From contig CBDHHL010000032.1 in NCBI GenBank assembly GCA_965263355.1, forward strand, positions 2,528,001-2,592,000: a stretch of DNA of 64,000 nucleotides. Reading direction: 5' to 3'. This document shows positions 8,031 to 35,193 of this stretch, in pieces (position 1 is the stretch's first letter; the number at the start of each line of letters is the position of its first letter). The position numbers and the translations under genes are program-made. The stretch is from Leptolyngbyaceae cyanobacterium (GTDB lineage: Bacteria; Cyanobacteriota; Cyanobacteriia; Phormidesmidales; Phormidesmidaceae). The notes beneath the pieces were generated by a model. The model did not search any database. It saw only the letters and a program-made list of their open reading frames with translations, and was not told where the DNA came from.

Positions 8031-8033
8031 TTT

Positions 8034-16333: not shown

Positions 16334-16362
16334 GCAGATTTTTTACTGCGGTTTTTTGAGAT
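16334..16362 (+). promoter_or_regulatory. conserved bipartite motif GCAGAT-N17-TGAGAT (putative alternative-sigma promoter)
   Basis: GCAGAT at 16334-16339, TGAGAT at 16357-16362, T-tract before the second box; about 110 nt upstream of the 16471 ORF. Confidence 0.65.
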
Positions 16363-16470
16363 CCCCTGAGGCGAGTAGTTGTATGCCGTCTGGCTATCAA
16401 TGTCAGAAACATAGAGCAGTTAATAGGTGCTTGTAATTAGCCGTATCAAATTTTTGGGAGAATCAGGCAA

Positions 16471-17526
16471 GTGTTTGTTACCATCCTTCGAGTTCGCTAC
16501 AGGTTGCTGATAGTCGCAACAGCTCTGATACTGGCATTTGTAAGTGTATTTTTGGATGTTGGCAGTTCCTTTGCTACACAACCTCGAAACTTTCAAGTCA
16601 TGCGAGCTGCTAGACCACAACCACCCCATGACGCTATCATTGGGTGTCCACCTCGTACATGTGGTCCCCAGCGTTTAGCGAATGGTAGTGCACTCCTTAG
16701 CTCACCACTTACCATACGTGATCCTCAAACGGTTAGTAATAGTCGGTTTGTAACTGTTCAAGGAGCATCTTCCAATGCGGATGATATTGTTCAGCTTGTA
16801 GATGATGCCGTCTCCGTATGGGAAAAGGCATTTGAGCCTGCTAGTTTTCCCAACATTACGATCCATGTGGGCTGGGCCGATTTTGGGATAGGGGGGCTCT
16901 CTGATCAGAATGGTTCACTGGCACCAGATCCCGACTATCCAGAATCTTTTATGGTACCGAGTGATGCCATTGGGCTTCACATTTGTGGTGCTCCCATATC
17001 GTCAAATCAGAGCCCCGACCCTTATGTTGATTCTTCAGGAAATGGCTGTAGACCCGCTGCTTTAGATGAAGTGACTGTCTTATTTAATAGTGAACCACTG
17101 TCATTTGACTACAGTGGGCAACAAGGTGACATAAAACTGTTGTTAGATAGCAATCCGTTCAATGCTTTAATCTGGGATAATTTGCAGACTATTCCACTGA
17201 AAGGAAGCCGACTAGAATTGACCCCTGATGTGGTTGACCTTTTTACTGTTGCCTTACATGAAGTGGGGCATGTGCTTGGGTTTTCTGAGATTAATCCAGC
17301 TGTAGAAGATTTGATCAATCAAGGTCCTCTCTTTGACGCCGCCCATATCCCTGCTGAGAAGCCATCCGTTATGGCTGAGTACTTGGCAATGAATACACGA
17401 AAGTGTCCCACCCCGGATGATGTAGAGCTGATTCATGCGTTTGGCTCCTATGTGCCAGAGGCTTCTGGATATGCGCCCAGTAGTTTAACCCCCTGCCAAG
17501 AGTCACCAGCAAGGTATGTTCCATAA
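16471..17526 (+). CDS. secreted zinc metalloprotease-like protein
   Basis: Hydrophobic N-terminus, DLFTVALHEVGHVLGF zinc motif, SVM Met-turn-like motif, several cysteines. Confidence 0.75.
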   Translation: MFVTILRVRYRLLIVATALILAFVSVFLDVGSSFATQPRNFQVMRAARPQPPHDAIIGCPPRTCGPQRLANGSALLSSPLTIRDPQTVSNSRFVTVQGASSNADDIVQLVDDAVSVWEKAFEPASFPNITIHVGWADFGIGGLSDQNGSLAPDPDYPESFMVPSDAIGLHICGAPISSNQSPDPYVDSSGNGCRPAALDEVTVLFNSEPLSFDYSGQQGDIKLLLDSNPFNALIWDNLQTIPLKGSRLELTPDVVDLFTVALHEVGHVLGFSEINPAVEDLINQGPLFDAAHIPAEKPSVMAEYLAMNTRKCPTPDDVELIHAFGSYVPEASGYAPSSLTPCQESPARYVP

Positions 17527-17745
17527 TTGACTAAGTATGTTGACCTAATCATCATTGCTCAGTCCAATGGAACCTCGGTACTTAAAGCATAGTTGAATAA
17601 TCTGTTTAACCCGTGCTTAGACTTGAATTGAGCTTAATGCTTCTAAAAATTTAAGAAATCTTGCCTTAGGACATATTTCCTAGCCTGAGGCAAGGTTTCT
17701 CTTTTAGGCTAATACCGATTTGTTTTAGAGCCATTCTTAGCCCCC

Positions 17746-20358
17746 ATGATGACTCAAATACTTTCCTCCCGGATAACGGAGGTTACTGCCTACTTATTTG
17801 CTTACCAAAGATTAGTGCTAATGGGGGGAATTTCCTCATTAGGGTTGATCTTTGGAACCGCTGATGCGATCGCACAAGTAACTCCCGATGCGGCATTACC
17901 CATAGGAGAAAATACTACTGTTAACCTTAATGGAGGAACCTATGACATTAGCGGTGGTGCAACCCGAGGTAGTAATTTATTCCACAGCTTTGACTCATTT
18001 TCCCTGGGCACGGGTGAGGAGGCTTTTTTTAATCATGCACCAACCATTGATACAGTTTTAAGTCGGGTTACAGGCGGAAGCGCGTCCAATATTGACGGTA
18101 CGATTCGCACACCGATTAACAGTATCGCCGATCTGTTTTTTATCAATCCGCAGGGAATTGTTTTTGGTCCCAATGCCGCCCTTGACATTGGTGGCTCTTT
18201 TATTGCCAGCACTGCTACCCAATTGACCTTTGCAGATGGAACAACTTTCAATACGGCTAATCCTCAAACTACGACACTCACCATCAGTCGTCCCTCGGGG
18301 TTAATTTTAGGAGAAAAATCAGGCTCCATTGAGAATCAGTCAACTGTCGAGCTTTTCCCAGGTTTTCCTGTAGGTTTGGAGGTACTTTCAGGAGAATCAA
18401 TCATACTTGTGGGGAATGGCCTTAATATGACTGGCGGTAAGCTAACCGCTTTCTCAGGTCGAATTGACATAGCTAGCCTGGCACCAGAAAGTACTGTAAG
18501 CTTGTTGCCCGCAAATGGGGTTAACCAATCAGGTTGGATGTTGGATGATGAGACGTTAGAAGGGCTAGTTTTTCAAGATATCCAACTATCTAGTTCCTCT
18601 CGTACCAATAATTTGTTTTTTAATTCCTCTCTTATTGATACATCGGGCGATTTTATAGGCAATCCAAATGGGACTCTCCGATTGTGGGGGCGGCAGATAC
18701 TGTTGAGTGGAAGTAACCTGTTAAACAATAACTATGGCATTTCTCAGGGGGGAGATCTAACCATAGTCGCATCGGAAAGTTTACGTTTAAATGATCTTTC
18801 TTTAATCTCTACGGCTACAGCTAGTGATGGAGAGGCAGGCAACCTGATATTAGATGTTCCTGAAGGGATTGTTGAACTAAGTAATGATAGTCAATTATCT
18901 GCACAGTCAGGTTTATTTATTGGTAATGGGGCTACTGGAGCAGCCGGTACATTAACCATAAATACGACAAATCTGAGTGTTAAAACGGGTTCGGTTGTGA
19001 CAACTGGAGCATTAGATGATGCCCAAGGGGGAACACTGATTATTAATGCTCCTGACGGTTTTGTAGAAATTGTTGGTGTGTCCCAAAACAATAGCGGTAT
19101 TAGTTTTAGTAGATTAGTTAGTGCTGTCAACGGTACACAACCTGCCGGAGATATTCAAATCGATACAGGCGCGTTGTTAATTCAGGATGGCGGACAAATC
19201 ATATCTAGCACCTTTGGTAGAGGCAAAGGAGGAAACACAATTATTAATACCACCGAATCGGTTACAGTTACAGGGAATGTAGGAGGTGCTCCTAGCCAAA
19301 TTTCCTCATCTACAGGTGAGTTTGAAGTATCCGATCCCAACTTAATTACTGGAGATGCGGGTTCTGTAAACATTGTGACTGGACGCTTAGTGGTGCAAGA
19401 CGGAGGGACTATTTTTACGACCACCAATGGTCCCGGTCAGGGAGGGGCGTTAACAGTAAACGCAACTGAGATAATCTTAGACGGCAATGGCAATAATTTA
19501 ACTGGCCTATTTGCTCGTACTAGAGGGGCTGGCAATTCTGGAATTTTAGAGGTTGAGGCCGATAGCCTTCAAATCCGGGACAGTGCTCGGATCACGGTGA
19601 GTACCGATGACAATCTCCTTCCCACGGAGTTAGGTACTGTCCGTGATGCTACCATTAATGCGCGCACCATTACCCTGGACAATGGTCAAATCACTGCGGA
19701 GTCTCTCACGGGTGACGGGGGTAATCTTAACTTTATGGTGGACGACTATATTCTGCTACGCAACAACGGTCTAATTTCTGCCACGGCGGGCACGGCAGGG
19801 GCTGGAGGGGCGGGGGGCAATATCATTATTGATGCTGATTCAGGTATTGTTGTGGCGATCCCAGAAGAAGATAGCGATATCAGAGCCAATGCCTTTGAAG
19901 GACGAGGGGGAAATGTCATTATTACCGCTCAAGGTGTGTTGGGTCTAGAACGCCGAGAAGCGCCCACTCCCCTAAGTGACATTACAGCCAGTTCCGAATC
20001 AGGCATCAATGGCACGGTTGAGGTGAATACTCTGGCATTTATTCCCTCACCAGAACGGATTGTTTTGCCGTCAGACGTTATTGATTCTTCTCAATTGTTG
20101 GCTCAGGGGTGTGATCAATTGAGTGCTGGCTCAACCAGTCAGGGAGAGTTTTATATTTCGGGACGGGGGGGTGTGAGTCCGTTAACCTCTGGGATATTAG
20201 GCAGTGATGAGGTGATCGATGATCTACGCTTGCCTGAGACTTGGGACGGTTCTAGTTCGCTTACAGAGGCCCAGGGATGGTACAGAAGTGATGTGGATGA
20301 GATAGTGCTAACAGCTGTTCCGCTGCCTGAGGTGACTCGTAGTCGATGCCGCTCTTAG
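17746..20358 (+). CDS. filamentous haemagglutinin N-terminal (TPS) domain exoprotein, TpsA-like
   Basis: AQVTPD, NLFHSF, SRVTGG.AS.IDG, NPQGIVFG, beta-helix repeats, GRGG and EAQGW tail. Confidence 0.93.
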   Translation: MMTQILSSRITEVTAYLFAYQRLVLMGGISSLGLIFGTADAIAQVTPDAALPIGENTTVNLNGGTYDISGGATRGSNLFHSFDSFSLGTGEEAFFNHAPTIDTVLSRVTGGSASNIDGTIRTPINSIADLFFINPQGIVFGPNAALDIGGSFIASTATQLTFADGTTFNTANPQTTTLTISRPSGLILGEKSGSIENQSTVELFPGFPVGLEVLSGESIILVGNGLNMTGGKLTAFSGRIDIASLAPESTVSLLPANGVNQSGWMLDDETLEGLVFQDIQLSSSSRTNNLFFNSSLIDTSGDFIGNPNGTLRLWGRQILLSGSNLLNNNYGISQGGDLTIVASESLRLNDLSLISTATASDGEAGNLILDVPEGIVELSNDSQLSAQSGLFIGNGATGAAGTLTINTTNLSVKTGSVVTTGALDDAQGGTLIINAPDGFVEIVGVSQNNSGISFSRLVSAVNGTQPAGDIQIDTGALLIQDGGQIISSTFGRGKGGNTIINTTESVTVTGNVGGAPSQISSSTGEFEVSDPNLITGDAGSVNIVTGRLVVQDGGTIFTTTNGPGQGGALTVNATEIILDGNGNNLTGLFARTRGAGNSGILEVEADSLQIRDSARITVSTDDNLLPTELGTVRDATINARTITLDNGQITAESLTGDGGNLNFMVDDYILLRNNGLISATAGTAGAGGAGGNIIIDADSGIVVAIPEEDSDIRANAFEGRGGNVIITAQGVLGLERREAPTPLSDITASSESGINGTVEVNTLAFIPSPERIVLPSDVIDSSQLLAQGCDQLSAGSTSQGEFYISGRGGVSPLTSGILGSDEVIDDLRLPETWDGSSSLTEAQGWYRSDVDEIVLTAVPLPEVTRSRCRS

Positions 20359-20394
20359 GCGAGACCATAGGACAGTTTTGACGGGTATTTTAAT

Positions 20395-23022
20395 TTAGGA
20401 CCAATTGCCAATTAACATATAATTTGCCCAGACATAGGGGGTGGTATATCCATAGTCATTAATCAGAGACAACTGTGCCAGACGTACAGCTTCAGCAATG
20501 GGGGTATCTGGCTGGGAGAGGGCTTGATAAAAACGAATCATAAACTCTGTGTTGGGGGTATCTTGCGCTGTCCACAGGGTAGATAAAACGCTGCGGGTGC
20601 CTGTTCTGGCGGCTAGGCCAGCTAATCCTAAAACCGCTCGTTTATCACCTTGGGCTGTCTCACAGGCACTGAGTACCACTAACTCTAAGGGGTGTACGCC
20701 ACCTTGACTGCCTAACTGGATCAAACCATTCAAGTCCTGAGCTGAAATCTGTTCTTGGTAGGCGACTAAATAGGTTTCATCAGGGTCAGAGCTAAAGACG
20801 CCATGGGTTTTCCAATGAATGGCTGAAAAATCACCTGTTTCTAGCTGGGCTCGCAGATTGTCGCTGGTAAATGATTCGTTGAGCAGCACATTCTTACTGT
20901 CTACGTATTGGGCAATGCCATCTAGTTCTTCTTCTAGCTTAGCAATTGGGGAAAATCGGGTTGCTTTAATTTCTTGTGGTAGGCCAATGCCGCCCATCAA
21001 TACTTGCAACGATGGGGTGTCCGGCTGAGGAGTAAATAGTTGTAAGCGGGGGGCGATCGCAACCCCATATCCCTTTTCAATCAAATACTGCTCTCCATCA
21101 TGGAGCACCGCCATGGGAATATTTCGCAATGCCCCATCTGGAACAAATACCAATGTCTTAGCTGGGGTTTGAGCTAGTTCCTTTTCTAACGGACGAATCA
21201 ACCAGTCATAAACGGTTTGGGCATCTGCTATAACATCGGGTGTTTTACTGGGGTTAGTCAGACTGGATTGCAGTCTGGCCAGTGTCTTGTCCGCTATATC
21301 TTGAGGGATAAGAGATTCTCGGTATACGGTTGTCTCTGTGGCTCCGGGCAACTGAGCGATGACCGCGATGCGATCGCTTAAAATGATGGGATAAAGGATA
21401 GCAGTTTGGTCATCTTGCACCTGTTCTACTTGACTGGCATCCAGAGTACAGCCCAGATAGTTTTCTAATTCTGCCAGCTGTAGCTGATCAACAGTCTGAA
21501 TCGCCTTTTTTAACCCATTGGCATCCTGCTTCTGTTCTGACAGTAACAGCTTAATATACTGACGATAAACGGGCTCTACATTATCCCGAAAAGAAAACTG
21601 AACATCAGTATTGACGCTCAATAAGTTATTGCGCACCTGTTGTAAGCTCTCAATAGCTGCTTGATAGCTCTGAATTGCCCCCAGACGATCGTTCTGGTGT
21701 TGTCGAAGTCTGCCGAGTTGCCATTCCCAGCGATAGCGAATTTCAGGGGCTTGTATGGTTTCTAAGCTTAACAACGCCCGCTGAGTCAAAATCTGGGCAT
21801 CTGTCCATTGATTAGTCTGTTCATAGAGTGTGCCTAACTGTCCCAGGGCGTATGCTTCAGCCCGTTTATCCTTGAGGGTACGAGCCTGAGCAATCGCTGT
21901 TGATAACAGGTTGGCAATTTCTTCAGGCTGTAAGGCTATCGAGCTATTGTTTGTTTTCTCGGCGAGGGTTAATTCTGTCGATGATGACCGTGCTTTCATC
22001 AAACTCTCAGCCAGATGAATATAGCCATAGATAACCGTGCGACTGATGGGCAGTTGCGCAATCGCCTGCTTTACCTGGGGCAATGTTTCCATTGCTTGGG
22101 TGATCCGATTATGCTCAACCCGCAGTCGAAATAGATTTAACTGAGCCAGGGGCGCATTATTGATGTCAATGGCGCGTTGGTAAGCTGTCTGAGCTGATTG
22201 GATATACTGCTGAGTCTTGGCTTGACGACCAATGGCATCGAAGCGATTAGCCATGGCCCAGGCTGTATTGCCCAGTTCTAATAGGATATTGCTAGCTGTT
22301 TTGGGGTGGGTGGTGAGGGATAAACTCTCCTGGAGTACACGTTGAGCAGTTTCTAAGTCTCCGATTTGTCGTAGGGCACTACTTAAGCTGTATAACCCTG
22401 TTGCCTTGAGGTCATCATCGGGCTGTTGCTGAATGTGTTGATAGACAGCTTGCAAAACAGCTTTTGCTTGATGATTGAGCCCCAGATATTGTAACACTCG
22501 GGCTTGGTTGATGTTTGCGATCGCTACCCCCGCCAAATCGCCCGCTTGTCCGTAGAATTGTCCGGCTCTTTGCCAATCGCTCAGGGCTGCCTCAAAGTCA
22601 CTCTGCAGCCACCGGAGTTTGCCTTGGGCATTTAGCACCTTGGCATAAATCACAGTCTGGGTCGATGAATAGGTTGTAGAGTCGACTGCTTCAACTAACT
22701 GCAAGCTAGCTGTTAGACTTTGGCTTGCCTGATCAAGTTGCCCCAGTTCCTGTTGAGCTAATGACAGATAGCTTAAACTCAATGCCTGGCCCCAGTTATC
22801 CCCTTGACGCTCAAATTCTAGACTTGCCCGTCGCCATTGCTGAACAGCCTTCGAATATTGCTCAGTTTCGTAATAGCCTAAGCCCTGTTGCAGTAAACCC
22901 TGATGTGTTTCAGCTGCCAAAACTGTTAACGGGCTTATATCCCTAGAGGAAATATCAATGATTGTCGGCATTAATACAGTGAGTATAAAACTCATCAGCC
23001 CGATCAGTAACCATCGCAACAT
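20395..23022 (-). CDS. exported TPR-CHAT protease
   Basis: Signal-like N-terminus, TPRs, FVPDG.L, catalytic HWKTHG and LSACET, W..Y.LIGNW. Confidence 0.93.
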   Translation of the reverse strand: MLRWLLIGLMSFILTVLMPTIIDISSRDISPLTVLAAETHQGLLQQGLGYYETEQYSKAVQQWRRASLEFERQGDNWGQALSLSYLSLAQQELGQLDQASQSLTASLQLVEAVDSTTYSSTQTVIYAKVLNAQGKLRWLQSDFEAALSDWQRAGQFYGQAGDLAGVAIANINQARVLQYLGLNHQAKAVLQAVYQHIQQQPDDDLKATGLYSLSSALRQIGDLETAQRVLQESLSLTTHPKTASNILLELGNTAWAMANRFDAIGRQAKTQQYIQSAQTAYQRAIDINNAPLAQLNLFRLRVEHNRITQAMETLPQVKQAIAQLPISRTVIYGYIHLAESLMKARSSSTELTLAEKTNNSSIALQPEEIANLLSTAIAQARTLKDKRAEAYALGQLGTLYEQTNQWTDAQILTQRALLSLETIQAPEIRYRWEWQLGRLRQHQNDRLGAIQSYQAAIESLQQVRNNLLSVNTDVQFSFRDNVEPVYRQYIKLLLSEQKQDANGLKKAIQTVDQLQLAELENYLGCTLDASQVEQVQDDQTAILYPIILSDRIAVIAQLPGATETTVYRESLIPQDIADKTLARLQSSLTNPSKTPDVIADAQTVYDWLIRPLEKELAQTPAKTLVFVPDGALRNIPMAVLHDGEQYLIEKGYGVAIAPRLQLFTPQPDTPSLQVLMGGIGLPQEIKATRFSPIAKLEEELDGIAQYVDSKNVLLNESFTSDNLRAQLETGDFSAIHWKTHGVFSSDPDETYLVAYQEQISAQDLNGLIQLGSQGGVHPLELVVLSACETAQGDKRAVLGLAGLAARTGTRSVLSTLWTAQDTPNTEFMIRFYQALSQPDTPIAEAVRLAQLSLINDYGYTTPYVWANYMLIGNWS

Positions 23023-23034
23023 TGCTCTATTTCC

Positions 23035-26000
23035 TTACTCGTTCTGTCCACATCGTTCTTGTATGGCTACAGGTGAAGTCGTTAAAACAGCATCGCCTGT
23101 AGCACTCATAAACCAGCCTTGAGCCTCAGTTATAGGTCCATTGTCAGACCATGTTTCTGGTAGTCGTAGATCATCCACAATATCCTGAGGGTTGAGGATC
23201 TCCAGTAAAGCAACTCCCCCTCGACCCGATGTGTAAAAGGCACCTTGTGATCCAACTGTAGTTAGATCACATCCCTGGATGATTAGCTGCGAAGCGTTCA
23301 GTAAACCATCCGGTAACATCACTAACCCCTGGGCAGGATCGACACCCAGATTGTTAATCTCAACCGTACCACTCAGACCAAACTCCGAGCTGGCTGTAAT
23401 GTCACTTAAAGGAGTGAGTTTTGGCCTAGCTTCAATCCCTAAAGTACTTTGGGCATTGATATTTACATTGCCACCGCGTCCTTGAAATGCGTTTGCCGTA
23501 ATATCGCTGTTTTCTTCAGAAACAGCAACCACAAAACCTAATTCAGCAGCAATATTAATGTTTCCTCCATCTCCTAAACCCTGCTCTATGCCAGCATTAG
23601 TTGAAATTAAACTTCCTCTTCGTAAGAGTAATGCATCTTGGAGCTGTAGGAAAATGCTGCCTCCTCTGTTGCTAAATGTCTCGGCAGAAATAGACGCATT
23701 GTCAGCTAACGTCAGAAGATCTGTTTCCAACTCTATAATGCCACCAACACCACTTCCCCGACTATCAACTGCAATTGATGCACCATCACTAACCGTGATA
23801 ATTTTGGGATTAATGAGTGAATTGATAGAAATATTACCTCCATCGCCCCCTGCACCTCTCTCAGTATTGGCAAACAGTCCACTTTGTGCACCTGTTAGAC
23901 TGATCGAATCAGTGATATCCAGCGTTATATCTCCAGCATCTTCTGCCCCGGAAGTTGTAGTGCGAATTTGAGCACCGCCATTAACGGTAAGTGTATCAGC
24001 TAAAATTAGAACGGTTCCACCCATTCCATCGACAGTAGATGCGGAAATGCTAGCTCCATCTTGAACTGACAAATTAGGAGTAACGATTTTTGTGTTACCG
24101 GCATCGCCTGTTGCCTGTGCTTCAGTAAATAAGCCGCTAGAAGCACCTAACCCATCCAAAACAACTCCTGTTAGTAAAATTGACTCTGTTGCTTCTACGG
24201 TTAAATTTCCCCCACGGCCTGCCCCAAGGGTGGCAGACGAAATTTGTCCCCCCCTTTCTACGATTAGACGTTTAGTTGATATCTGGGTATTTCCGGCGTC
24301 TCCAGAGCCATTGGTCTGGGAAGACAGAACAGTACCAAACTGTCCAGAAGTGCCAGTCACCTGTATTAGGTCCGAGGCATTGATTGTTAATCTTCCTCCT
24401 GTTCCTTCATTCAAGGTTGCCGATGAAATCTGGCTGCCGTCCTGCATAATTAAGTGGCTTGTGTTGATTTCTAAGTCTCCAGCAGGGCCTGAGCCATCAG
24501 CTTGGGTTAAGATTCGACTACCTTGCTGAGTAATGGGAGAACTTCCTGAAAGTTGTAGTAAATTATCCACATTAATTGTTAACTTTCCACCTGCTCCTGA
24601 TGCAAGACTACCAGCACTGCCAGCCTGTACTTGAGCACCATTTTGGACCAAAAACATAGGCGTATTTATTTCGAGATCGCCTGCATTTCCTGCCCCTTCA
24701 GTTCGGGAAAATAAACCACTTCTACGCAGTTCATCTGTCGATGTACCAGTAAGCTGAATGGATTTTGATGCTGTGACAGTCAGTCTGCCAGCATTTCCTG
24801 GGCCAAAACTACCAGAACCAGCTTGTGCACCATTATTTATTAATAGACTAGGTGTGACAATAGACAGATCACCTGCTGCCCCGCTTCCTTGAGTAGAACT
24901 AAACAACCCGCTTGAGAAACGAGTATCGCTGCCTGTGCCGCTGAGTTGAACAGACTCTGAGGCATTGATATTTAAGGGACCACCTGTCCCCCCATCAAAG
25001 CCCGCAGATGAGATAAATCCGCCTGCTTGAACGAGTAATTCTCCAGTGGTAATGCTAATGCTGCCAGCTGTTCCAGTGCTACTGTCTGCTATACTAAGCA
25101 AGCCGCTGCCAAATCCCCCCAAGGATTCTCCGACAATTTGCACTGAGTCGGAGGCCTCTATGAGTAGTTCTCCCCCGGAACCTTCACCAAATGTTGCTGT
25201 TGAAATCTGTCCTCCATCCTGAATAATCACGTCTGGTGCAACAATCACTAGGTTTCCTGAATTTCCAGAGCCAAATGTTTGCGAAAAAACTCCACTTCCA
25301 AATAGTCCACTGGGGGTAGTACCAGTCAACCGAAAAGACTCGGAGGCTGTTATTATTACATTTTCACCAGGCGTTGGGCCAAAATTGAGCGCTTGAATCA
25401 GGGAGCCGTCCTGCATTTGAATGGATTGCCCCCACATTTTCACCGCTCCGCTGCGAAACCCATAGGTATTTAGGATAGCCCCTTCTTCAAGGGAGATATT
25501 AGCAGGCGATATACTGTCAGGAACATTTAAATTTAGGCGCTCATTATTACTAATAAGATCGACATTTCCAGCTCCGGAAATGCTAACTAAATCTATCTGC
25601 CCTTCCAGGGCATTGAGTCTTCCCCCAATGAGAGAAATATCTCTACCCAACAATAATAAACTTTCTCCATCTGGAACTCTGAGTCCTGATAGGGCCGCTC
25701 CAAAAGGATCAAATCCAGCCGGCGCAATAGACTGACTATCTATTGCGCCGTTAGACGCACTAGTAAAGAAAAACGCGGTAGGATCAATAGAAAGCAATGA
25801 CGATGACTGAGGTTCAGATGCACTAAATACGGCTTGATCACCGAATCGGATTGCATTAGCTGTGCTAGCAATAAATGAACCGCCAATGTCGAGTTGAGCG
25901 TTGGGACCAAAGATAATACCGTTGGGGTTAAGAAGAAAGAAATCGGCAGTGCCATTGGCTCGAATAAATCCATCGATATCGGAAATAGAATCGCCTGTCA

Positions 26001-26307: not shown

Positions 26308-26455
26308 ACTATCCCTGATTTGTCAATAAAGTGCGTTTAATAGCTATCTACCTATCTATAGGATTTGCTAATTTGCATAGTTTTTAGGGTAGCAAATCCT
26401 GGCTGGCAGCCATTGTTGTTAGAGATACTACGATGTAGGCTTTAAAGCTTAGAAA

Positions 26456-26495
26456 AGGGTATTTCCAGTAATAAAGCAATTACTAGAAATACCCT
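26456..26495 (-). terminator. hairpin terminator after the RTX gene
   Basis: AGGGTATTTCCAGTAAT / ATTACTAGAAATACCCT inverted repeat with T-run on the minus strand. Confidence 0.6.
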
Positions 26496-26534
26496 GATGA
26501 ACTGACTGGGAGTTCAACTCTGGTGCAGTGAATA

Positions 26535-27854
26535 CTAGCTCACTGCAATATCAGTATGGGATAGGGTAGGTGACCCTGACAAAATTGCCACCTGTACTTG
26601 CTGTTGACCACCCACTCCATCTGCATCAAAGAATAAGGCACCTGAGGTATTATCGTAAATCAGACGATGGTCAGCTGTCGAAGCACTAGACCCCAGGGTA
26701 AATTCATTGGCACGCAGTGTTCCCCGAGATATGCCGAAACCCGTGGCATAGAGTAAAATCTTATCGCCAGCCTGGGCATCAAAGTCTTGAAAGGTGTCGA
26801 TACCACTGAGGGGGCTAGTTAACGTGAAGTTATCGCCATCAGCTCCCCCGATCAAAGTATCGTTACCGGCATGACCTACTAAACTGTCAGTACCTACTCC
26901 TCCCATCAACGTATCATCACCATCATAACCTTTAATAACGTCGTTTCCATCATGTCCTTCTATATAGTTATCAACTGAATTACCGTAAATTCTGTTACTT
27001 AGATTATTGCCAATGCCTTTTTGGGCAGTATCTCGCAGCTGTAGAAACTCAACATGGGCCGACATCTGATGGTCTACATGGGCAACGACCGTATCATATC
27101 CCTCATTCGCTAGTTCAATAACTTGGTCATTTACACTGTCAACAACATAGGTGTCGTCCCCTTTGCCACCCACCATGTAATCATTACCAGTGCCACCATT
27201 TAAACCATCGGCACCCTCACCTCCAATAAGAGTATCGTTACCGCCGTACCCTAACAGAGCATCATTACCGTCTCCGCCAGACAGGTCATTTTGGTTGTTA
27301 TTGCCAATGATACGATTGTTTAGATCATTGCCAGTCCCATTCTTTGCTGCATCTCGAAGTTGTAGATCCTCAACATGGGAGGGGAGAATATAGTCGATAT
27401 AAGAAACTACAGTATCTTTTCCCGCATTTGCCGATTCAATAACCCGATCGCCCACATGGTCAACATAATAGGTATCGTCGCCCTGACCTCCTCCCATTGC
27501 ATCCTGGCCAGTCCCTCCATTTAGGTGGTCGTTACCTGCGCCCCCATAAAGATTATCATTATCTTCTCCTCCGGACAGGATATCATCGCCATCTTCACCC
27601 CATAGGCGATCACGTCCCTTACCACCATACAGAGTATCATTGTCATCACCGCCCCAAAGCTGATCAGTACCATCAAGACCATATAAGAGATCGTTGCCAT
27701 CTCCCCCATATAGTTCATCACCTAAAATACTTTTTGATCCCCCAGTTAACGTATCGTTACCACCAAGGCCATAAATAAGATACTTTTGCACTGGTGCTAG
27801 GTCAGGGGCTTTAAGATCATCATCATTGGGGGTACCAGGGATGGTAATAGTCAT
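26535..27854 (-). CDS. RTX/haemolysin-type calcium-binding repeat protein
   Basis: Many GGxGxDxLxG nonapeptides, no signal peptide, cyanobacterial C-terminal LFFDADG.G module. Confidence 0.9.
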
Positions 27855-27931
27855 GGTTAATTCTCCAGGTATCGATTTCAGAGCGATATTTACAGCTTGC
27901 TGAGAGTTTGTTTACTGTAAACAGTTGAAGG

Positions 27932-27960
27932 GTCTCAAAAAAATCAGTAGGTAAATCTGC
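27932..27960 (-). promoter_or_regulatory. conserved bipartite motif GCAGAT-N17-TGAGAC
   Basis: Minus strand reads TTGCAGATTTACCTACTGATTTTTTTGAGAC, about 78 nt upstream of the RTX ATG. Confidence 0.7.
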
Positions 27961-28350
27961 AAGGGTATAAATCTTGTTACAAATGTCTGTTGTTGTCTAG
28001 GGTAAAAGACATCTGCAACTATGGCATCGTGCCTATAATGAAAGGCTTTTCTATGAGACAAAATAGCTATTGTCGAAACCATAAATTTGATTTTTAACAG
28101 ACCCTAAGTTAGCTTTCTTATAAGTTAAATCGCCTTTGAAAAAAAGCAACTTTTTTAGCCGCTCACAGTTTTGTGCAACAAAGTTTGCCTCGTCTGCTAA
28201 TAACTGTTTTGTATTACTCAGCAGATCTGCCAAATGGTTAAAGGGATAAATCTGCACATAGTGAGGAGAGAGACAATGACTTGGACGGCCCATGGGAATA
28301 GAAATTGACCATGATAGAATCTCATCATAATCAAATTCTCACAAATTGCG

Positions 28351-28375
28351 TGGTTCCCCTTTGTCAGGGGAACCA
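28351..28375 (-). terminator. hairpin after the repeat-protein gene
   Basis: TGGTTCCCCT-ttgtc-AGGGGAACCA perfect stem just downstream of the stop at 28404. Confidence 0.5.
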
Positions 28376-28403
28376 TCAGGGATAAGAACATTTATGCTCC
28401 TAT

Positions 28404-29642
28404 CTAATCGGTGATAGCAATTACACCGGTTTGATTGGCCCAAGATGGCACATTCTCATTAGTGGCTGCCCAAGAGCCTGTGCCAGTAGAGAACAATACA
28501 GGCACCGTATTCCAGGGACCGCCCGGACGATGGAAGGCAATGTCTGTGTGGTAATCTGCGTTAAAGTCGCCTGAAATCGCCACCACACCAGGCTGATTCG
28601 CCCAACTGGGGGCACTATTGTTAGCACTAAACCAAGAGCCAGTACCATTAGCGAGTAACACAGGTACCGTATTCCAGGGACCGCCTGGACGATGGAAGGC
28701 AATATCTGTGTAATCATCTGAGTTAAAGTCACCTGAAATCGCTACCACATCAGGTTGATTCGCCCAGCTGGGGACATTTCTGTTGGCACTAGCCCAAGAG
28801 CCATTGCCGTTAGAAAATAATATAGGCACCGTATTCCAGGGGCCGCCTGGACGATGAAAGGCAATATCTGTGCGCTCATCCCCATTGAAATCTCCTGGAA
28901 TGGCAATCACATCCTGCTGATTTGCCCAGCTAGGGGCGCTTTGGTTAGCATCGGTCCAAGAGCCATTACCATTAGATAGCAATACAGGCACCGTATTCCA
29001 GGGACCGCCAGGACGATGAAAGGCAATATCTGTGCGCTCATCCCCATTGAAATCTCCTGGAATGGCAATCACATCCTGCTGATTTGCCCAGCTGGGGGCA
29101 TTCAAGTTAAACGTAGTCCAAGAGCCATTACCATTGGACAGTAACACAGGCACCGTATTCCAGGGGCCGCCTGGACGATGAAAGGCAATATCTGTGCGCT
29201 CATCCCCATTGAAATCTCCTGGAATGGCAATCACGCCAGGCTGATTCGCCCAGCTAGGGGCATTCTGATTAGTGCTAGTCCACGATCCGTTGCCATTAGC
29301 AAACAATACAGGCACCGTATTCCAGGGACCGCCTGGACGATGAAAGGCAATATCCTCACGACCATTTCCATCGAAATCTCCTGAAATCGAAATAACCCCC
29401 GGTTGATTGGCCCAAGATGGCACATTCTCATTCGCACTAGTCCAAGAGCCGTTGCCATTAGCAAATAATACAGGCACCGTATTCCAGGGACCGCCTGGAC
29501 GATGAAAGGCAATATCTGCCAGCTGGTTATTATCATAACTTGTATCAGCAAATGCTGGCGTTGAGTCGGTTGCAGTATAGGCCGGAAGCATAAGCAACAT
29601 CAAGCAAACGCGCCGAAACCGCTGAAGGTAGTTCACCATCAT
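28404..29642 (-). CDS. secreted FG-GAP/VCBS-like repeat protein, 7 x 54 aa (predicted beta-propeller)
   Basis: Signal peptide ending AFA; seven DIAFHRPGGPWNTVP repeats at 162-bp spacing with GDFNGD-type Ca-binding loops. Confidence 0.88.
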   Translation of the reverse strand: MMVNYLQRFRRVCLMLLMLPAYTATDSTPAFADTSYDNNQLADIAFHRPGGPWNTVPVLFANGNGSWTSANENVPSWANQPGVISISGDFDGNGREDIAFHRPGGPWNTVPVLFANGNGSWTSTNQNAPSWANQPGVIAIPGDFNGDERTDIAFHRPGGPWNTVPVLLSNGNGSWTTFNLNAPSWANQQDVIAIPGDFNGDERTDIAFHRPGGPWNTVPVLLSNGNGSWTDANQSAPSWANQQDVIAIPGDFNGDERTDIAFHRPGGPWNTVPILFSNGNGSWASANRNVPSWANQPDVVAISGDFNSDDYTDIAFHRPGGPWNTVPVLLANGTGSWFSANNSAPSWANQPGVVAISGDFNADYHTDIAFHRPGGPWNTVPVLFSTGTGSWAATNENVPSWANQTGVIAITD

Positions 29643-29851
29643 TCAAATCCCCTTTTTTGAAAGTTGTAGACAGATTGAGTAAGATCGCCATAATGCTTAC
29701 TCTTTAGTGCTGAAACCGTTGTTGACAAAAAATACGCTGTTTCTATACTTTTCAGCGAATGGGCATTGTTTCTCTCCTGATCAAGGGTGACGGAGAGCAG
29801 CAACCGGCAAATGTATTGTAAAAATCATCTGCTATTGGGTTGCCCATAGTA

Positions 29852-29880
29852 GTCTCAAAAAATCAGGAGAAAGAATCTGC
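29852..29880 (-). promoter_or_regulatory. conserved bipartite motif GCAGAT-N17-TGAGAC
   Basis: Minus strand reads TTGCAGATTCTTTCTCCTGATTTTTTGAGAC; lies between the upstream terminator and the repeat-protein ATG. Confidence 0.7.
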
Positions 29881-29936
29881 AATCGTTCAACTTATTTACA
29901 TAGGTTTACATTTACTCGAATAAGCGTATAAAAGAG

Positions 29937-29970
29937 CGCACCATCGACCGATACATCGGTCGATGGTGCG
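29937..29970 (-). terminator. intrinsic terminator of the sigma-DUF1822-CHAT-DUF928 operon
   Basis: 16-bp perfect stem CGCACCATCGACCGAT / ATCGGTCGATGGTGCG followed by CTCTTTT on the minus strand. Confidence 0.7.
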
Positions 29971-29995
29971 TTGAGTTATTTTGTTAGTTAAACAC

Positions 29996-30733
29996 TCACT
30001 CTTCTAGGGGAAGAACTGCACCTGAAAAGGTCATCGTGGTTAAGTCGTCCGCCTGAATAGACTGTAACAGTGAGCGCCAGTGCTCTTGTAATTGAGGATC
30101 TTGTGGAGATTCTTGTAAGCGTTTTGCGACCAAAGCCAAGGTGTCGTACCAGATCTCTGGTGAGGGTGATTGAATCTGTGGCGATTGTACTGATGTCGGT
30201 GCCACCCGCTGGACTGCACCATCAAGGGTTAAGTCAGGCTGAGCGTCTGGATTATCTTTACAGTGAATCTGAAAATACCAACGATAGGGTTGATCTTCCT
30301 TAAGGGCATATTCTGGGAGACCAGGTAAGGTGATGCTGACAATGCCAGGGGAGTCAGGTAGAGTGAATCGGGTACTATAGTGGCGTTGTTCTTCTCCTGG
30401 CCAGGGGAGTAAGGAGAATTCTCCATAGTCTATTTGCCCTGCGCCAAACGGGCTAAAAAATAAAAAGGTGGGATGGGCTTCTGTTGTACGTACAGGGTTT
30501 TCAACAGGAATAAGGGCTCTCAATGTTTCACCGACTTCATTACAGGATGAGTCTGTGGGATTTAGGCCACCACCAGGGGTGGTACGATTGGGGGGAAGAG
30601 GTGTCTGCGGAGGTTCCGGGGGGCGTTGGCTGATGATTTCTTGAGCAATTGACTCAGCCAAGCCGATTTTGGGAAGAATAGCCCAACTTCCTAAAAATAA
30701 GCTCGATAAAATAGCAAGTTTCCAAGCAATCAT
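29996..30733 (-). CDS. DUF928 domain protein
   Basis: Signal peptide, PP.RT.PGGG, ALIP, T..HPTFLF..P, Y.WYF.I.C, IWYDTL. Confidence 0.88.
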   Translation of the reverse strand: MIAWKLAILSSLFLGSWAILPKIGLAESIAQEIISQRPPEPPQTPLPPNRTTPGGGLNPTDSSCNEVGETLRALIPVENPVRTTEAHPTFLFFSPFGAGQIDYGEFSLLPWPGEEQRHYSTRFTLPDSPGIVSITLPGLPEYALKEDQPYRWYFQIHCKDNPDAQPDLTLDGAVQRVAPTSVQSPQIQSPSPEIWYDTLALVAKRLQESPQDPQLQEHWRSLLQSIQADDLTTMTFSGAVLPLEE

Positions 30734-30761
30734 GATTAAGTCTGAGAGGCAACAGAACAGA

Positions 30762-33233
30762 TTACGGAGTAGGCATTAGTGTTCTCATGATAGCCACACA
30801 GCTGACTGCTAAAAATACGGAAAAAATTGCAGGAACTACAGGAAGCCAAAGCCCTTGTGTCAGAGCGACAACAGATACTTCTGTAAGCCCCCAAGTTATA
30901 CCTATCATTGCAGATATTAGCCCTAGAAAGACACCTAATTTGGTAATTCGTGTCTGGCAAAGATATAGCCCACTAGCAACGATGCTGCTGATTAAACTCC
31001 ATCCTAAAATCCAGAGAGCAACTGCCCAGGGTAGGATAGGCCCATGGGGTAGTTGATTAATCAGTGGTCGTTGGTCTAACACTGCACTTAGCAACTGACT
31101 AACCATATGAGCATGGACCCAAACTCCGGGCATTTCGCCATAGGGGGTCTGGACGCTGTCCCTGGATACGGGGGCTGAATAGCCAATTAATACGAGGCGA
31201 TCGCGCACCATGTCCGGACTGAGTTGCCCCATTAGCACCGACTGAAGTGAAACAACCTGCCCCGGCTGGGCGGCACGGTAGTTCACCATGATCTGGCTAC
31301 TGAGACCGTCCAAATTTTGATAGGCTCCAAATCGATGGGATAAGGGACGAAAAACAGTTTCGCCAAACTGCCAGTGGTCGTCTTCTGTAATTGTTAGGGG
31401 GGTGACTTTCGCCTGGTCTAGAAAACGGTATGCTAGCTGAAAACTCAAGCTGTAAGGAGTGGCACAGTTGGACTGGTTGGCCACCAGATTGGGTGCATAG
31501 GAAAGCAGTTGGCGACGGACCACTCCCCTGGAAGGAAATAGGGTCGTTTCTGTTGACAACGTACCGGGCATGCCCATAGATGACTGTTGGAATCTCTGAT
31601 CCAATAACAAATTACTAAATCCTACCTGCCCAATTTGTTGGTCGTCTGATAGTTCTGGGGGCGACCCATAGTCTTCGGCTTCATGCCCATAAAAACAAAT
31701 GGTAAACAGACTAGGATGCTGGTGAAACTGATCGATCAGTTGTTCACGCCCGTTGCCTCTGGGTCGAAAGCGATGCATATCCAGGGCGATCGCAACTGGC
31801 TCAAATTGCTGTAATGCCTCCACTGCCTGGACCAGGACGTTATCAGAGAGGGGATAGCCCCCCAACTCATCGAGATCGCTCTGACTAACTTCCACGACCA
31901 AAATGCGGGAATCTATCACCTCGGCGGGGCGCGATCGCAACAAATGATCATAGGCCGCCAGTTCAAACGGTTGTAAAAGTCCTAAATATTGGACACACAG
32001 CGCCAGCGCCGTCATCACCAAACTAATTACAATGGGCTGCCACCAGCGCGAGGGGCACGGCGCAACAGCAGCTTGAGCAATAGCAGCTTGAACAGGCACC
32101 GATGGCGGGTTAGCGGGTTTACCCTGGAGTGTTTGCCAATCAGGGGGAGGAACCAACAGGTTTTGATAAATAACCGGTAGCCAACTGGCACAGGGGTACT
32201 GATGCTCTAACCCCTGGAGTCGCTCCCGTGCTTGCCTGGCCGATAGATACAGCGAGTCTCCCCTGGCAAAGGCCTCTAAAAAATAATTGAGAAAGGCTGC
32301 AGCCACCTGATCAACCACAGGCTCTCGCATTACCAGAATTTGGGGAATTGACAACTGCTGGAGCGCCTGCACCAGCCCCAACCCATCACAGGAATTAAAG
32401 ATCGCTAACTGCAGTCCCTGATCGATGGCCTGACGCAATCCATAGCGCAATTCAGATAGGGTCAAACTATCAGTGGGGTTAAGAAAAATGCGTCCCTGAT
32501 TGCGATAGGTTTCACTATGGCCTGCAAAAAATAAAATATCCCACGGTCTCTCCCAAAGGTGATCATTAAGCTGTTGCCGGTCAGGTTCCACTAAAAATGA
32601 GACCTCCGCCTGGGGCAACTGAGCCAGCAACTGCTGATCGGCCTCAACATTTATACCCTGGCTATGGCCCAAAATCGCTAATATTCTGACCGGGTGAGGA
32701 GATATTGCGCTAGGAACAGCACGTACCGTCTCATATTCAGCAGTCCCCAGGGCAATTTCAGCATAGGGATAGCGCTCAAAAAAGTCCCACTCATGCCAGG
32801 GAAGTTTTTGCACATCACTGTTCTGGGTACGAATCAAAAACCGAATGGTCTCATCCCGGCTAAGTTCTTCTCGCAGACGACGATCAATCGGTTGAAATGA
32901 GGCGGCATTTAACCACGCCTGAAATCGTTTACGCAACAGGTGAGCAGACTGTTGACAATCCACCAGACGTTGATTGATGGAGCCTTTGTAGATAATCTTT
33001 TGTCCCTTAATGCGGGTATTAAGTCCCAATGGACGATAGATATCCTGCCAATGGCGCCGTAATTGGGCCAGCATCACCGCATCCGGTGGCAACTGCCCTT
33101 TAACTTTGAAAGCCCCTAAGTCATTAGCCAGGACTTCCAAGGTTACCTGAAACCCTGCCGTCTGAAACTCTCCCTCTAATTCTAAAATTACCCAACGTCC
33201 ATCCATGGTTTCTTTGGCAGCATGCATGCTCAA
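30762..33233 (-). CDS. membrane CHAT-CHASE2 protein
   Basis: LPWHEW, catalytic FFAGHS and IFNSCDG, WLP, TM helix, CHASE2 (ILVVEV, VVRRQLL, PGVWVHA), 3 C-terminal TM helices. Confidence 0.92.
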   Translation of the reverse strand: MSMHAAKETMDGRWVILELEGEFQTAGFQVTLEVLANDLGAFKVKGQLPPDAVMLAQLRRHWQDIYRPLGLNTRIKGQKIIYKGSINQRLVDCQQSAHLLRKRFQAWLNAASFQPIDRRLREELSRDETIRFLIRTQNSDVQKLPWHEWDFFERYPYAEIALGTAEYETVRAVPSAISPHPVRILAILGHSQGINVEADQQLLAQLPQAEVSFLVEPDRQQLNDHLWERPWDILFFAGHSETYRNQGRIFLNPTDSLTLSELRYGLRQAIDQGLQLAIFNSCDGLGLVQALQQLSIPQILVMREPVVDQVAAAFLNYFLEAFARGDSLYLSARQARERLQGLEHQYPCASWLPVIYQNLLVPPPDWQTLQGKPANPPSVPVQAAIAQAAVAPCPSRWWQPIVISLVMTALALCVQYLGLLQPFELAAYDHLLRSRPAEVIDSRILVVEVSQSDLDELGGYPLSDNVLVQAVEALQQFEPVAIALDMHRFRPRGNGREQLIDQFHQHPSLFTICFYGHEAEDYGSPPELSDDQQIGQVGFSNLLLDQRFQQSSMGMPGTLSTETTLFPSRGVVRRQLLSYAPNLVANQSNCATPYSLSFQLAYRFLDQAKVTPLTITEDDHWQFGETVFRPLSHRFGAYQNLDGLSSQIMVNYRAAQPGQVVSLQSVLMGQLSPDMVRDRLVLIGYSAPVSRDSVQTPYGEMPGVWVHAHMVSQLLSAVLDQRPLINQLPHGPILPWAVALWILGWSLISSIVASGLYLCQTRITKLGVFLGLISAMIGITWGLTEVSVVALTQGLWLPVVPAIFSVFLAVSCVAIMRTLMPTP

Positions 33234-33268
33234 GATTAGAGAATCACACGTATCTTATAGCGGTTATG

Positions 33269-34228
33269 CTAGACATAAAACAGCTCGGTGATAACGGATT
33301 GATTCAGGCTAATCTGCACCGTAAAATTTTCGCCAGATACGGCACTAAATTGAAATTCTAAGCCTTCACTCTGGCGTCCTTCAGCTTGCAAAACGGGTAT
33401 TTGAGTCTCATCCATCACTACCACTTGTAGGCAGGGGGGTAAGTAAGTATCTTGCCCCGCCGGGTATAACTCAACGGTAATATCAAATGTCTGCCGCTCT
33501 TCGATGGGGGTAATCCCCACTAGAAATAATACCTGAGTCTCAGAAACATGACTCAAGGTCAAAAATTTACCTTGCTTAATTCCCGTAGCCTCTGGCGCAA
33601 TTACGTCTCGATTGGTCAATGAGGTTCTAAAACTGAAGGCAGGTGTCTGCCAATCTTCAAGCAGCTGATTTAGGGCGGTCCAACTGTCATCAACAATCTG
33701 ATCTAACCAACCCTGGAGCCTGGTGGGAGACAATGCTGGAGCCACAGTCTCAGGCACAACCTGCTTTAAGTAACTCGGAAACCGATCGATAGACTGTAGC
33801 GCCTGGATCGGTATGGGTGTTGGCTGTAATTGGGGGAGAAAGCCCAACAACGTTGCTTCGGTTAGGGAGTTATTGAGCTGTACAAACAGATAGCCAATGC
33901 GGTCATCCCAGGCTTCTTCGGGAATGTCTAACTGGGTTTGGGCGGGTAAAACAGCACAGCATTCCAACCGTCCTCCATCAGTAACCCACAAATCCGCCGC
34001 GTTACTAAGAACCTGAACAACCGGATTCCAGCTGTCACTTTTCTCTAAACAGGCGTCTATCCCAAGACAGGTTAAGTAAAATTTTACAGCCTGTACACTT
34101 AGCGTGTTGAGATAGATCTGTTTTGCCTTTTGAGCATTGCGATGGTGATTATAAAACTGTTGCGCTAACTGATGAAACCTATGGGTTAGTGGAATTGTAA
34201 ACGTTGTTGATGGGCAGTGGGGAGTCAT
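33269..34228 (-). CDS. DUF1822 family protein
   Basis: A..IYLNTL.V.AV..YL, S.SWNP, ADL, GRLEC, DRIGYL.VQL, A.LLGF; C-terminal Ig-like LP..L...GE.F.V domain. Confidence 0.9.
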   Translation of the reverse strand: MTPHCPSTTFTIPLTHRFHQLAQQFYNHHRNAQKAKQIYLNTLSVQAVKFYLTCLGIDACLEKSDSWNPVVQVLSNAADLWVTDGGRLECCAVLPAQTQLDIPEEAWDDRIGYLFVQLNNSLTEATLLGFLPQLQPTPIPIQALQSIDRFPSYLKQVVPETVAPALSPTRLQGWLDQIVDDSWTALNQLLEDWQTPAFSFRTSLTNRDVIAPEATGIKQGKFLTLSHVSETQVLFLVGITPIEERQTFDITVELYPAGQDTYLPPCLQVVVMDETQIPVLQAEGRQSEGLEFQFSAVSGENFTVQISLNQSVITELFYV

Positions 34229-34312
34229 TGATTTGTATGGGCGTAGAAGTTATCACACAAGCAAGAAGAAGATTAGTTGGCAGTCATCAGGGTCTCCAAG
34301 GGCAGTGGACGG

Positions 34313-34346
34313 TGTGTAGGGGCATTGCATGCAATGCCCCTACACA
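34313..34346. repeat. GTAG-type REP-like perfect palindrome
   Basis: TGTGTAGGGGCATTGCATGCAATGCCCCTACACA (34 bp). Confidence 0.75.
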
Positions 34347-34383
34347 GAGGGCAATGGGCAATTTTTAGTTATATACAAACGCT

Positions 34384-35040
34384 TTACTCTAATTGGGTTG
34401 TTATATAGTCTTTGAATTTAGGTGCAAATTTAGTCAGGCATCGTAGATAAAATGAACTCAAGGTGACGATTTTTACATCGAGTTCAGCCGAAATTTCTTT
34501 CCATGAATAGCCTCCTAAAAAGCGTAGAGCGATATGCTGAAAATTAGCGTTGGGCTTTTTGCGGATATAGGTTTGCTTAAATAGTCCATCGCGATCGTCT
34601 TGAATACATTGAATGACTTCTTCGGATAGGGAGGGGGTGGATTGCGATCGCAACTCAAGCGACTCCTGTTTATCCAGGGCATCCAAGGTAATCCGTTTAA
34701 CCTGGGATAAATCCATGCCTTTCGGAGCCGTCGGCATAAAATCTCGACTCGCCTCAATAAAGAACCGTTTTCTCATCAAGAAATTGGCCCACTGCAGCAC
34801 TTCCCGCCGATGGTCATAGCGTTCGATATCCTCACATATATAAAGAAACAACCGTTGTTGGGCTTCAGCATAAATGTCCTCATAGAGGCCACAAAACTGT
34901 CCCTGATGGGGCCGCACTAATTTTTTAGATCGATAGATTGTATCGACTAAACGAGCCAGCGCCCGCTGCCGCTCCGGCGTTTTAGGAGGATACTGTTGAG
35001 CCTCCATAGCAAGTTGTTTCAGCTGTTGATCTAAGGTCAT
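34384..35040 (-). CDS. ECF-like sigma-70 family factor (cyanobacterial type)
   Basis: Region-2-like DIY.EA.Q..F.YIC..I..YD and W.N..M..RF; region-4 HTH GYSWKEIS.EL......LSSFY.RCL; start taken at MTLDQQL. Confidence 0.8.
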   Translation of the reverse strand: MTLDQQLKQLAMEAQQYPPKTPERQRALARLVDTIYRSKKLVRPHQGQFCGLYEDIYAEAQQRLFLYICEDIERYDHRREVLQWANFLMRKRFFIEASRDFMPTAPKGMDLSQVKRITLDALDKQESLELRSQSTPSLSEEVIQCIQDDRDGLFKQTYIRKKPNANFQHIALRFLGGYSWKEISAELDVKIVTLSSFYLRCLTKFAPKFKDYITTQLE

Positions 35041-35110
35041 GCGTCCTGGAAGCAAGGCAGACTGAGCACAGATTACTAACGCAAACGTTTTGCCCAGCCC
35101 TACTAAAGGC

Positions 35111-35139
35111 ATCTCGCAAAATAAGGTGCCAAAATTTGT
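35111..35139 (-). promoter_or_regulatory. variant motif ACAAAT-N17-CGAGAT upstream of the sigma-like gene
   Basis: Same 17-nt spacing and orientation as the three GCAGAT-N17-TGAGAY sites; about 71 nt upstream of ATG 35040. Confidence 0.45.
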
Positions 35140-35193
35140 GGACTACAGATATTTTTGCAAAACTTTACAAATATAGATACCCAAGCCCTAACT

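Follow-up and report, generated by a model that had tools for sequence, protein, structure and literature searches.

A putative three-part promoter for the ECF-type sigma factor of a cyanobacterial CHAT-CHASE2 gene module

Filamentous cyanobacteria hold many caspase-like (CHAT) signalling cassettes. For the cassette considered here, in which a sigma-like gene is joined to genes for DUF1822, CHAT-CHASE2 and DUF928 proteins, no described output was found in the literature, and the question arises as to which promoter the sigma-like protein reads and which genes it may control. The cassette was analysed within a stretch of 64,000 nucleotides, hereafter the window, from a Leptolyngbyaceae cyanobacterium (GenBank assembly GCA_965263355.1, contig CBDHHL010000032.1, positions 2,528,001 to 2,592,000). 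A sequence-only reading of this DNA had proposed that the motif GCAGAT-N17-TGAGA(C/T) is the promoter of the local ECF-like sigma factor, which would regulate itself and nearby targets. Conservation, co-occurrence, concerted change of the -35 box and a predicted ECF fold all speak for that proposal. Judging from sequence comparison, the motif is probably a three-part promoter recognised by the ECF-type sigma factor that is encoded next to it, and would serve the sigma's own four-gene operon together with a few other genes, mostly for exported proteins.

The operon and the core motif in the window

The operon lies on the minus strand in the order sigma-like gene (34384..35040, with the start ATG at 35040 supported by homologues), gene for the soluble DUF1822 protein, a predicted anti-sigma factor (33269..34228), CHAT-CHASE2 gene (30762..33233) and DUF928 gene (29996..30733). 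It is followed on the same strand by a gene for an FG-GAP repeat beta-propeller protein with seven 54-aa repeats (28404..29642) and by a gene for a protein with RTX calcium-binding repeats (26535..27854). The CHAT-CHASE2 protein comprises an N-terminal domain of about 190 aa, a CHAT caspase-like protease domain (E 2e-13) whose His239 and Cys282 are intact and precede the first transmembrane (TM) segment, and a CHASE2 domain (E 1.5e-51) beyond that segment, followed by three more TM segments to give four in the protein. The HetZ/PatU3/HetF system, presumably a possible parallel to this module, was considered and set aside, as HetZ models miss the sigma and its 12 relatives and HetF matches through the CHAT domain only.

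Three hairpins were located on the minus strand, namely a terminator ending the sigma operon (29937..29970; -29.7 kcal/mol, z -8.1), a hairpin behind the propeller gene (28350..28374; -26.9 kcal/mol, z -4.1) and a terminator-like hairpin behind the RTX gene (26456..26495; -26.1 kcal/mol, z -6.6). All three of these hairpins, which had been described earlier as insulating the genes, do fold; the one behind the propeller gene lacks a U-run directly behind it. The remaining candidate target is a Zn-metalloprotease-like gene on the plus strand (16471..17526) whose product has a hydrophobic N-terminus. All three candidate targets had been described as genes of secreted proteins; the RTX and FG-GAP assignments are borne out by Pfam, whereas the protease was recognised from a weak M10 match below the cut-off together with a visible HEVGHVLG motif. 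No toxin or enzyme domain was found in the RTX protein by profile search.

Exact matches to GCAGAT-N17-TGAGAY occurred three times in the 64-kb window, whereas shuffled sequences gave 0.03 on average and none of 100 shuffles reached three. The coordinates and strands first noted were correct, each copy is oriented into its gene and a T-tract precedes the second box. The putative -35/-10 boxes are GCAGAT N17 TGAGAT for the Zn-protease gene (16334..16362, plus strand, predicted +1 at about 16369) and GCAGAT N17 TGAGAC for both the RTX gene (27932..27960, minus strand, predicted +1 at about 27925) and the propeller gene (29852..29880, minus strand, predicted +1 at about 29845). The variant ACAAAT-N17-CGAGAT reported ahead of the sigma-like gene was likewise found, and would represent the operon's own core boxes (35111..35139, minus strand, predicted +1 at about 35104). 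Since the first pattern had been read off the window sites themselves, the meaningful test is a model trained on other genomes. Such a model, built from 24 sites, returned exactly four sites in the window (47, 47, 42 and 26 bits) and scored everything else at 6 bits or less, the best score among 20 shuffled windows being 7.8 bits. Looser matches at 13537, 43533 and 60122 lie inside coding sequence and were not returned by the trained model, and in the same scan the TPS, TPR-CHAT and PEP-CTERM protease genes of the window were without a site; for the source organism the regulon scan covers the 64-kb window. The three minus-strand sites are covered by contigs from a public sequencing run that differ by no more than one letter per contig piece, this run being possibly the window's own source and not an independent one; among four DNA runs compared with the window, diverged coverage of the promoters was not found.

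Transcription starts were predicted at the purine 12 nt past the base that opens the second box, on the basis of a conserved pyrimidine-purine step in the homologues. With these starts, GCAGAT takes position -35 and TGAGA position -12, and the centre of an upstream repeat lies at -58/-59. Term searches of published tables of transcription starts gave no occurrences in PMC4143802 and PMC3610870 and, for the selected subset of starts in PMC5580265, no site in the -35 position among the rows listed, results that weigh neither for nor against the promoter reading. The T-tract in the spacer is frequent in target sites of the window's clade but is not conserved across the sigma family, so that this part of the original description applies to the clade.

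Conservation of the element and its upstream repeat

Homologues of the sigma were detected in at least 66 of 301 genomes of a phylum sample (E <= 1e-5, up to 10 candidates per genome scored) and also in 14 plasmid records, with a patchy, multi-copy distribution. The nearest named relatives, from Leptolyngbya sp. PCC 7375 and Adonisia turfae, are 86% identical. Motif discovery upstream of orthologous sigma genes, which had been suggested as a check, was performed on a promoter set of 72 loci taken from 60 fetched phylum loci, 14 closest relatives, 3 plasmid loci and the window, with four near-duplicates and the partial matches excluded. By a model that was trained on these same upstream sequences, its seed coming in part from the window, 42 of the 55 closest sigma homologues are preceded by a three-part element of more than 17 bits, and none of the 17 most distant ones is; in 120 shuffles the highest score was 15.8 bits. 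The -35 box differs among sigma clades, being GCAGAAT in the window's clade and GC(G/A)TAAAA, CCGTAAAA, GGATAAAA and GCCTAAAT in others. The window's own sigma promoter deviates from the -35 consensus (ACAAAT), which counts against the proposed reading, and comparison by eye of recognition-helix residues with the -35 variants gave no one-to-one correspondence.

The third part of the element, missing from the sequence-only reading, is a direct repeat WWTGTAAM-NN-WWTGTAAM found 14-15 nt upstream of the first box at all four window sites, and its reverse complement equals the published consensus of HLR1, the RpaB site. HLR1 has been described as two 8-nt direct repeats (G/T)TTACA(T/A)(T/A), 2 nt apart, which are bound by RpaB and activate when centred between -66 and -45 (Riediger et al. 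2019, PMC6525291, bioRxiv 10.1101/443713); the repeat centre at -58/-59, counted from the predicted start, would fall inside this activating range. The reverse HLR1 is perfect at the propeller promoter (29895..29912, minus strand, 0 mismatches), has 1 mismatch of 16 at the Zn-protease promoter (16301..16318, plus strand) and 1 at the sigma promoter (35154..35171, minus strand), and has 5 at the RTX promoter (27976..27993, minus strand), where the proximal half alone is intact. When both strands of the window were searched with up to two mismatches to HLR1, the only matches were those at 16301, 29912 and 35171, each of which belongs to a motif site. Among 51 sigma promoters with recognisable core boxes, the reversed HLR1 was present within 3 mismatches in 33, the forward one in 1 and the reversed one at a control position 40 nt higher in 0, while the repeat was poor or absent in 18. 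An NtcA site (GTA-N8-TAC) occurred in 0 of these 51 promoters, and a sigma-54-like TGGCAC in the spacer of the window's sigma promoter had, by eye, the wrong spacing; both candidates were discarded.

The two boxes proved insufficient to define a regulon. A relaxed two-box pattern gave 178 genome-wide matches against 134 for the control, which is near background, and the two-box pattern in five genomes gave 19 matches against 19, with 3 of the 19 being of the intergenic three-part kind. As the pair of boxes does not by itself stand out from background genome-wide, most of the specificity comes from the third box. The bipartite -35/-10 motif first proposed is upheld for its core boxes, which are conserved at sigma genes, but has to be extended to a three-part element.

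Candidate readers of the element and its targets

In an order sample of 150 genomes, the window-type pattern was present in 9 of the 10 genomes that carry the window's sigma clade (defined at E < 1e-100) and in 3 of the 140 that do not (Fisher p 3e-11), a comparison in which most of the 10 clade genomes had contributed training sites and kinship was left in the statistics. Two of the three sites in clade-lacking genomes lie in coding sequence, and a control pattern occurred in 2 of the 150 genomes. In 6 of the 10 clade genomes a site is found on a different contig from the sigma, and about 13 of the 15 sites in these ten show, by eye, the distal half-repeat, which the pattern does not demand. 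In the phylum sample the link between sigma and motif was weaker (11/33 versus 6/84 genomes of at least 4 Mb, p 8e-4, kinship kept). The -35 octamer of sites other than the sigma's own agreed at 7.03 of 8 positions with that of the sigma promoter in the same genome, compared with 5.39 +/- 0.29 after permutation (0 of 10000 permutations as high); this test comprised 19 genomes with kinship kept and excluded 12 genomes for which no own promoter had been scored.

Further sites were sought up to 10 kb away from the 72 sigmas. A spacer of 17 gave 19 of them, whereas shuffles gave 1.3 and six other spacer lengths gave 4-11; one of the 19 is duplicated, two come from the window and 17 lie outside long ORFs. 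The strict pattern gave 38 sites in 17 of the 301 genomes of the phylum sample, and the control pattern gave 0. Thirty sites were fetched, among which 6 are sigma promoters, 0 lie inside a long same-strand ORF and 3 overlap an opposite-strand ORF. No gene follows 3 of the 30, which belong to three genomes, so relic sites exist. The domains of 27 proteins, hand-picked from behind the sites, were then tallied. Domains typical of exported proteins (RTX, subtilase, trypsin, CAP, propellers, DUF3466) occur in 12 of them and 3 belong to type I export machinery; the others comprise 2 haem-oxygenase-like/cupin enzymes, an M50 peptidase, an HTH protein and 8 proteins without a family. On this tally the output appears to be mostly, but not only, exported, so that the exoprotein set suggested earlier describes the greater part of the targets.

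The motif is very unlikely to represent dispersed-repeat, terminator or structured-RNA sequence. The site at 16334 can form a 6-bp hairpin ahead of a T-run, but this hairpin is not significant (z -1.4), the other two sites are unfolded (z -0.2 and +1.0) and the sites have no Rfam match. The spacer is fixed in length and variable in sequence, similarity between the four sites is limited to the boxes, and none of the five largest repeat families listed for the window covers them; the dispersed repeat that had been named as one possible refutation of the promoter reading finds no support here. Unlikely as well, though less so, is the explanation that the sites are promoters of a different, lineage-wide factor, such as a sigma paralogue or a transcription factor, with the sigma operon as one target among others. 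A motif-type sigma was not detected in 4 of the 17 motif-positive genomes (G240, G204, G067 and G234), G240 giving no sigma homologue whatsoever in three genome searches; several genomes have more distant DUF1822-linked sigmas; and the -35 variants could track the host lineage instead of the sigma, as the octamer test keeps kinship. Against this, the exceptions are fragmented assemblies, two further genomes (G176 and G200) carry interrupted sigma copies, the distant sigma paralogues are without the motif, and within the order the window-type motif follows the patchy sigma clade in the proportions given above.

A separate alternative concerns the third box alone and leaves the core promoter to the local sigma: the upstream repeat may be an UP element, that is, phased A/T tracts bound by the alpha subunits of the polymerase, or may be bound by a protein specific to the module. 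ECF sigmas usually need no activators, which counts in favour of an UP element, and the repeat has its A and T tracts spaced by about 10 nt, which places them one and two helical turns upstream of the -35 box. About 25% of predicted ECF promoters carry UP subsites (PMC7776599). A factor reading tracts would not, however, need the G of each TGTAA half, which is conserved among the sigma homologues (0.67 and 0.87), and the three window sites that fit HLR1 at 0-1 mismatch of 16 are the sole such sites in 64 kb. We consider the UP element or module-specific site a plausible explanation of the repeat, but on balance lean towards binding by RpaB or a close OmpR-type regulator.

The predicted switch and known systems

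If the three-part promoter is read by the local sigma, the protein itself should be recognisable as a sigma factor. It scored 16 bits against the curated sigma profile TIGR02937 (cut-off 42.9) and had no Pfam match, while 6 of its 12 relatives match the profile (best E 4e-10). The protein was classed as a divergent ECF-type sigma, with no assignment to a named ECF group. A search of PDB sequences gave best E values of 0.36-0.41, to SigK and sigma-E. The structure model built from 112 sequences had a mean pLDDT of 83, with a low-confidence, short disordered linker at residues 104-134, compared with 46 for a model from 12 sequences only. In the predicted model, residues 1-99 match the ECF sigma-2 domain of SigC (Z 10.0, rmsd 2.2, 84 aligned) and residues 137-215 the sigma-4 domain of SigR (Z 6.5, rmsd 2.6, 64 aligned), Z values that are modest for helical folds, although the top matches are nearly all sigma factors. 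Foldseek with this model returned nothing at E <= 0.001, though its list consisted entirely of sigma factors. The models thus present the window protein as an ECF-type sigma. The model of its complex with DUF1822 scored 0.88, against 0.39 for the best control, a mark that 116 of 157 solved pairs and 2 of 215 mismatched pairs attain; the runs had at least 87% contact agreement and a partner pLDDT of at least 78. In this model, residues 8-155 of DUF1822, a protein with no TM segment, cover sigma-2 and the recognition helix of sigma-4, which supports, but does not show, that DUF1822 is the anti-sigma of this sigma.

A mechanism may be proposed on these grounds. GCAGAT would act as the -35 box and (T/C)GAGA(T/C) as the -10 box, and at rest DUF1822 would keep the sigma's two DNA-binding domains bound. 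A ligand or signal at the outer CHASE2 domain, perhaps involving DUF928, would activate the inner caspase-like domain, and the activated protease would free the sigma from DUF1822. The freed sigma would then initiate at the motif, amplifying its own operon and switching on a few exported proteins, assisted by a helper on the direct repeat (centre -58/-59), for which the OmpR-type regulator RpaB is the most likely candidate. Promoter activity, start sites, RpaB binding, cleavage and signal are what we infer from the computed evidence. A stricter form, which we put forward tentatively, is a two-key switch in which a mobile, caspase-gated ECF sigma transcribes a secretion regulon only with RpaB on the upstream HLR1. 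Such a switch would constitute an activator-dependent ECF promoter class coupling an outside signal to the photosynthetic state, with -35 variants keeping paralogous modules separate. Binding of RpaB to the third box would extend the reach of RpaB to an alternative-sigma regulon, and the natural -35 variants could supply orthogonal sigma/promoter pairs for cyanobacterial engineering. The targets, which include proteases, RTX and propeller proteins and a type I exporter, suggest remodelling of the surface or surroundings and not cell death.

The gene module has been known since 2021, when EACC2-caspase neighbourhoods with an ECF sigma, DUF1822 and a TM plus CHASE2 caspase protein were described and a path from sensing through protease activation to a sigma-driven response was proposed (Kaur, Iyer, Burroughs and Aravind 2021, PMC8195603). 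The window module has the same gene set, with a catalytic His-Cys caspase domain, TM and CHASE2, while the available portions of that paper give no promoter, targets, DUF928 partner or anti-sigma label for DUF1822. In line with the earlier statement that no promoter was described for this sigma family, a literature search found no published promoter or regulon for it, the supplements of Kaur 2021 and Todor 2020 and subscription papers lying outside its scope. The motif we regard as real, and its reading as a promoter as well supported computationally; the putative promoter with its HLR1-like third box, the predicted starts, the target list and the predicted anti-sigma turn the 2021 computational prediction into a pathway that a single reporter could test.

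Group 4 ECF promoters are bipartite with a 16-18 nt spacer, about half of these ECFs are autoregulated, and nearly half of ECF regulons have at most 3 promoters (Todor et al. 2020, PMC7776599). The window module resembles them in its two-domain sigma and in a bipartite motif with a spacer of such length upstream of its own gene, but differs from the ECFs treated there, as far as that account extends, in that its sigma stays below the cut-off of the curated sigma HMM and the putative promoter has a base-specific third box. With published HLR1 sites the third box shares the two 8-nt repeats 2 nt apart (0, 1, 1 and 5 mismatches at the window sites), whereas here the repeat is always reversed, fixed at a predicted -58/-59, above a non-sigma70 core and ahead of exported-protein genes; an HLR1 site paired with an ECF-type promoter is not described in the available portions of the HLR1/RpaB work (PMC6525291, bioRxiv 10.1101/443713). 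The known cyanobacterial group 3/4 sigmas SigF, SigG, SigH, SigI and SigJ, of which SigF is autoregulated (PMC2758279), are likewise alternative sigmas with their own promoter type, but the window's sigma family, in contrast to these as there described, is patchy, multi-copy and also plasmid-borne. Sigmas released by proteases are known from Csx29/Csx30/CASP-sigma (PMC10028731) and DdvA/DdvS (PMC11506125). Compared with the available descriptions of these systems, the window module is without the CRISPR parts of the former and differs from both in that its protease domain is cytoplasmic and carried on a membrane sensor, its predicted inhibitor is a separate soluble protein, DUF1822, and its apparent output is exported proteins.

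Targets in other genomes and sites followed by hairpins

Two kinds of target were noted among the sites recovered from other genomes. At two sigma loci (L161 and L005:4065-9708), the site is divergent from the sigma gene and directed into genes encoding an HTH protein, a C39-peptidase ABC transporter, HlyD and a PPIase, a type I export set that may have the RTX targets as its cargo. A gene encoding a haem-oxygenase-like plus cupin enzyme is led by a site at five loci (L152, L157, L159, L160 and L014:4231-5589), and several genomes with this target belong to the window's clade; the enzyme is a non-secreted target that recurs in that clade.

At four further loci a hairpin with a T-run was found within about 60 nt after the conserved site. 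In three of them (L108, L122 and L123, from genomes G067, G204 and G010, respectively), site and hairpin are followed by no gene, only by the end of a convergent gene, and in the fourth (L104, G176) by a DUF5122 propeller gene. A relic promoter and a short RNA are both candidate readings of this arrangement.

Sigma genes and their upstream regions

In the branch that includes the window (core boxes at window 35111-35139; L001 and L002), the sigma gene's own putative -35 box shows more degeneracy than the corresponding boxes of its targets, and the feedback loop would be weakened as a result. Interrupted sigma genes at L138 (G176) and L140 (G200) retain strong promoter sites of 39 and 32 bits, respectively, and L140 has two further sites less than 5 kb away. 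The motif was absent upstream of a group of distant sigma paralogues (L083-L096). Several of these have in common another sequence in that region, which includes AATA(C/A)TAA(G/T)ATATTCTTGC and is possibly their own promoter.

Other genes of the window

The stretch 17746-26307, between two motif-led genes, holds a pair of TPS-domain genes in convergent orientation and one TPR-CHAT gene, whose His and Cys motifs are visible; the trained motif model detected no site belonging to any of these three genes. Elsewhere, a tandem pair of genes (53726-56316), each encoding 406 aa and assigned to the MPAB/rubber oxygenase family by domain matches, adjoins a TetR gene. Domain matches also revealed a second CHAT cassette (631-11403) comprising TPR-CHAT, a TPS-domain protein, a PEP-CTERM metalloprotease (NF038122), DUF928 and CHASE2-GGDEF-EAL. 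Domain annotation found no sigma gene in this cassette, and scanning of the window with the trained model found no motif there. The cassette may have c-di-GMP, not transcription, as its output.
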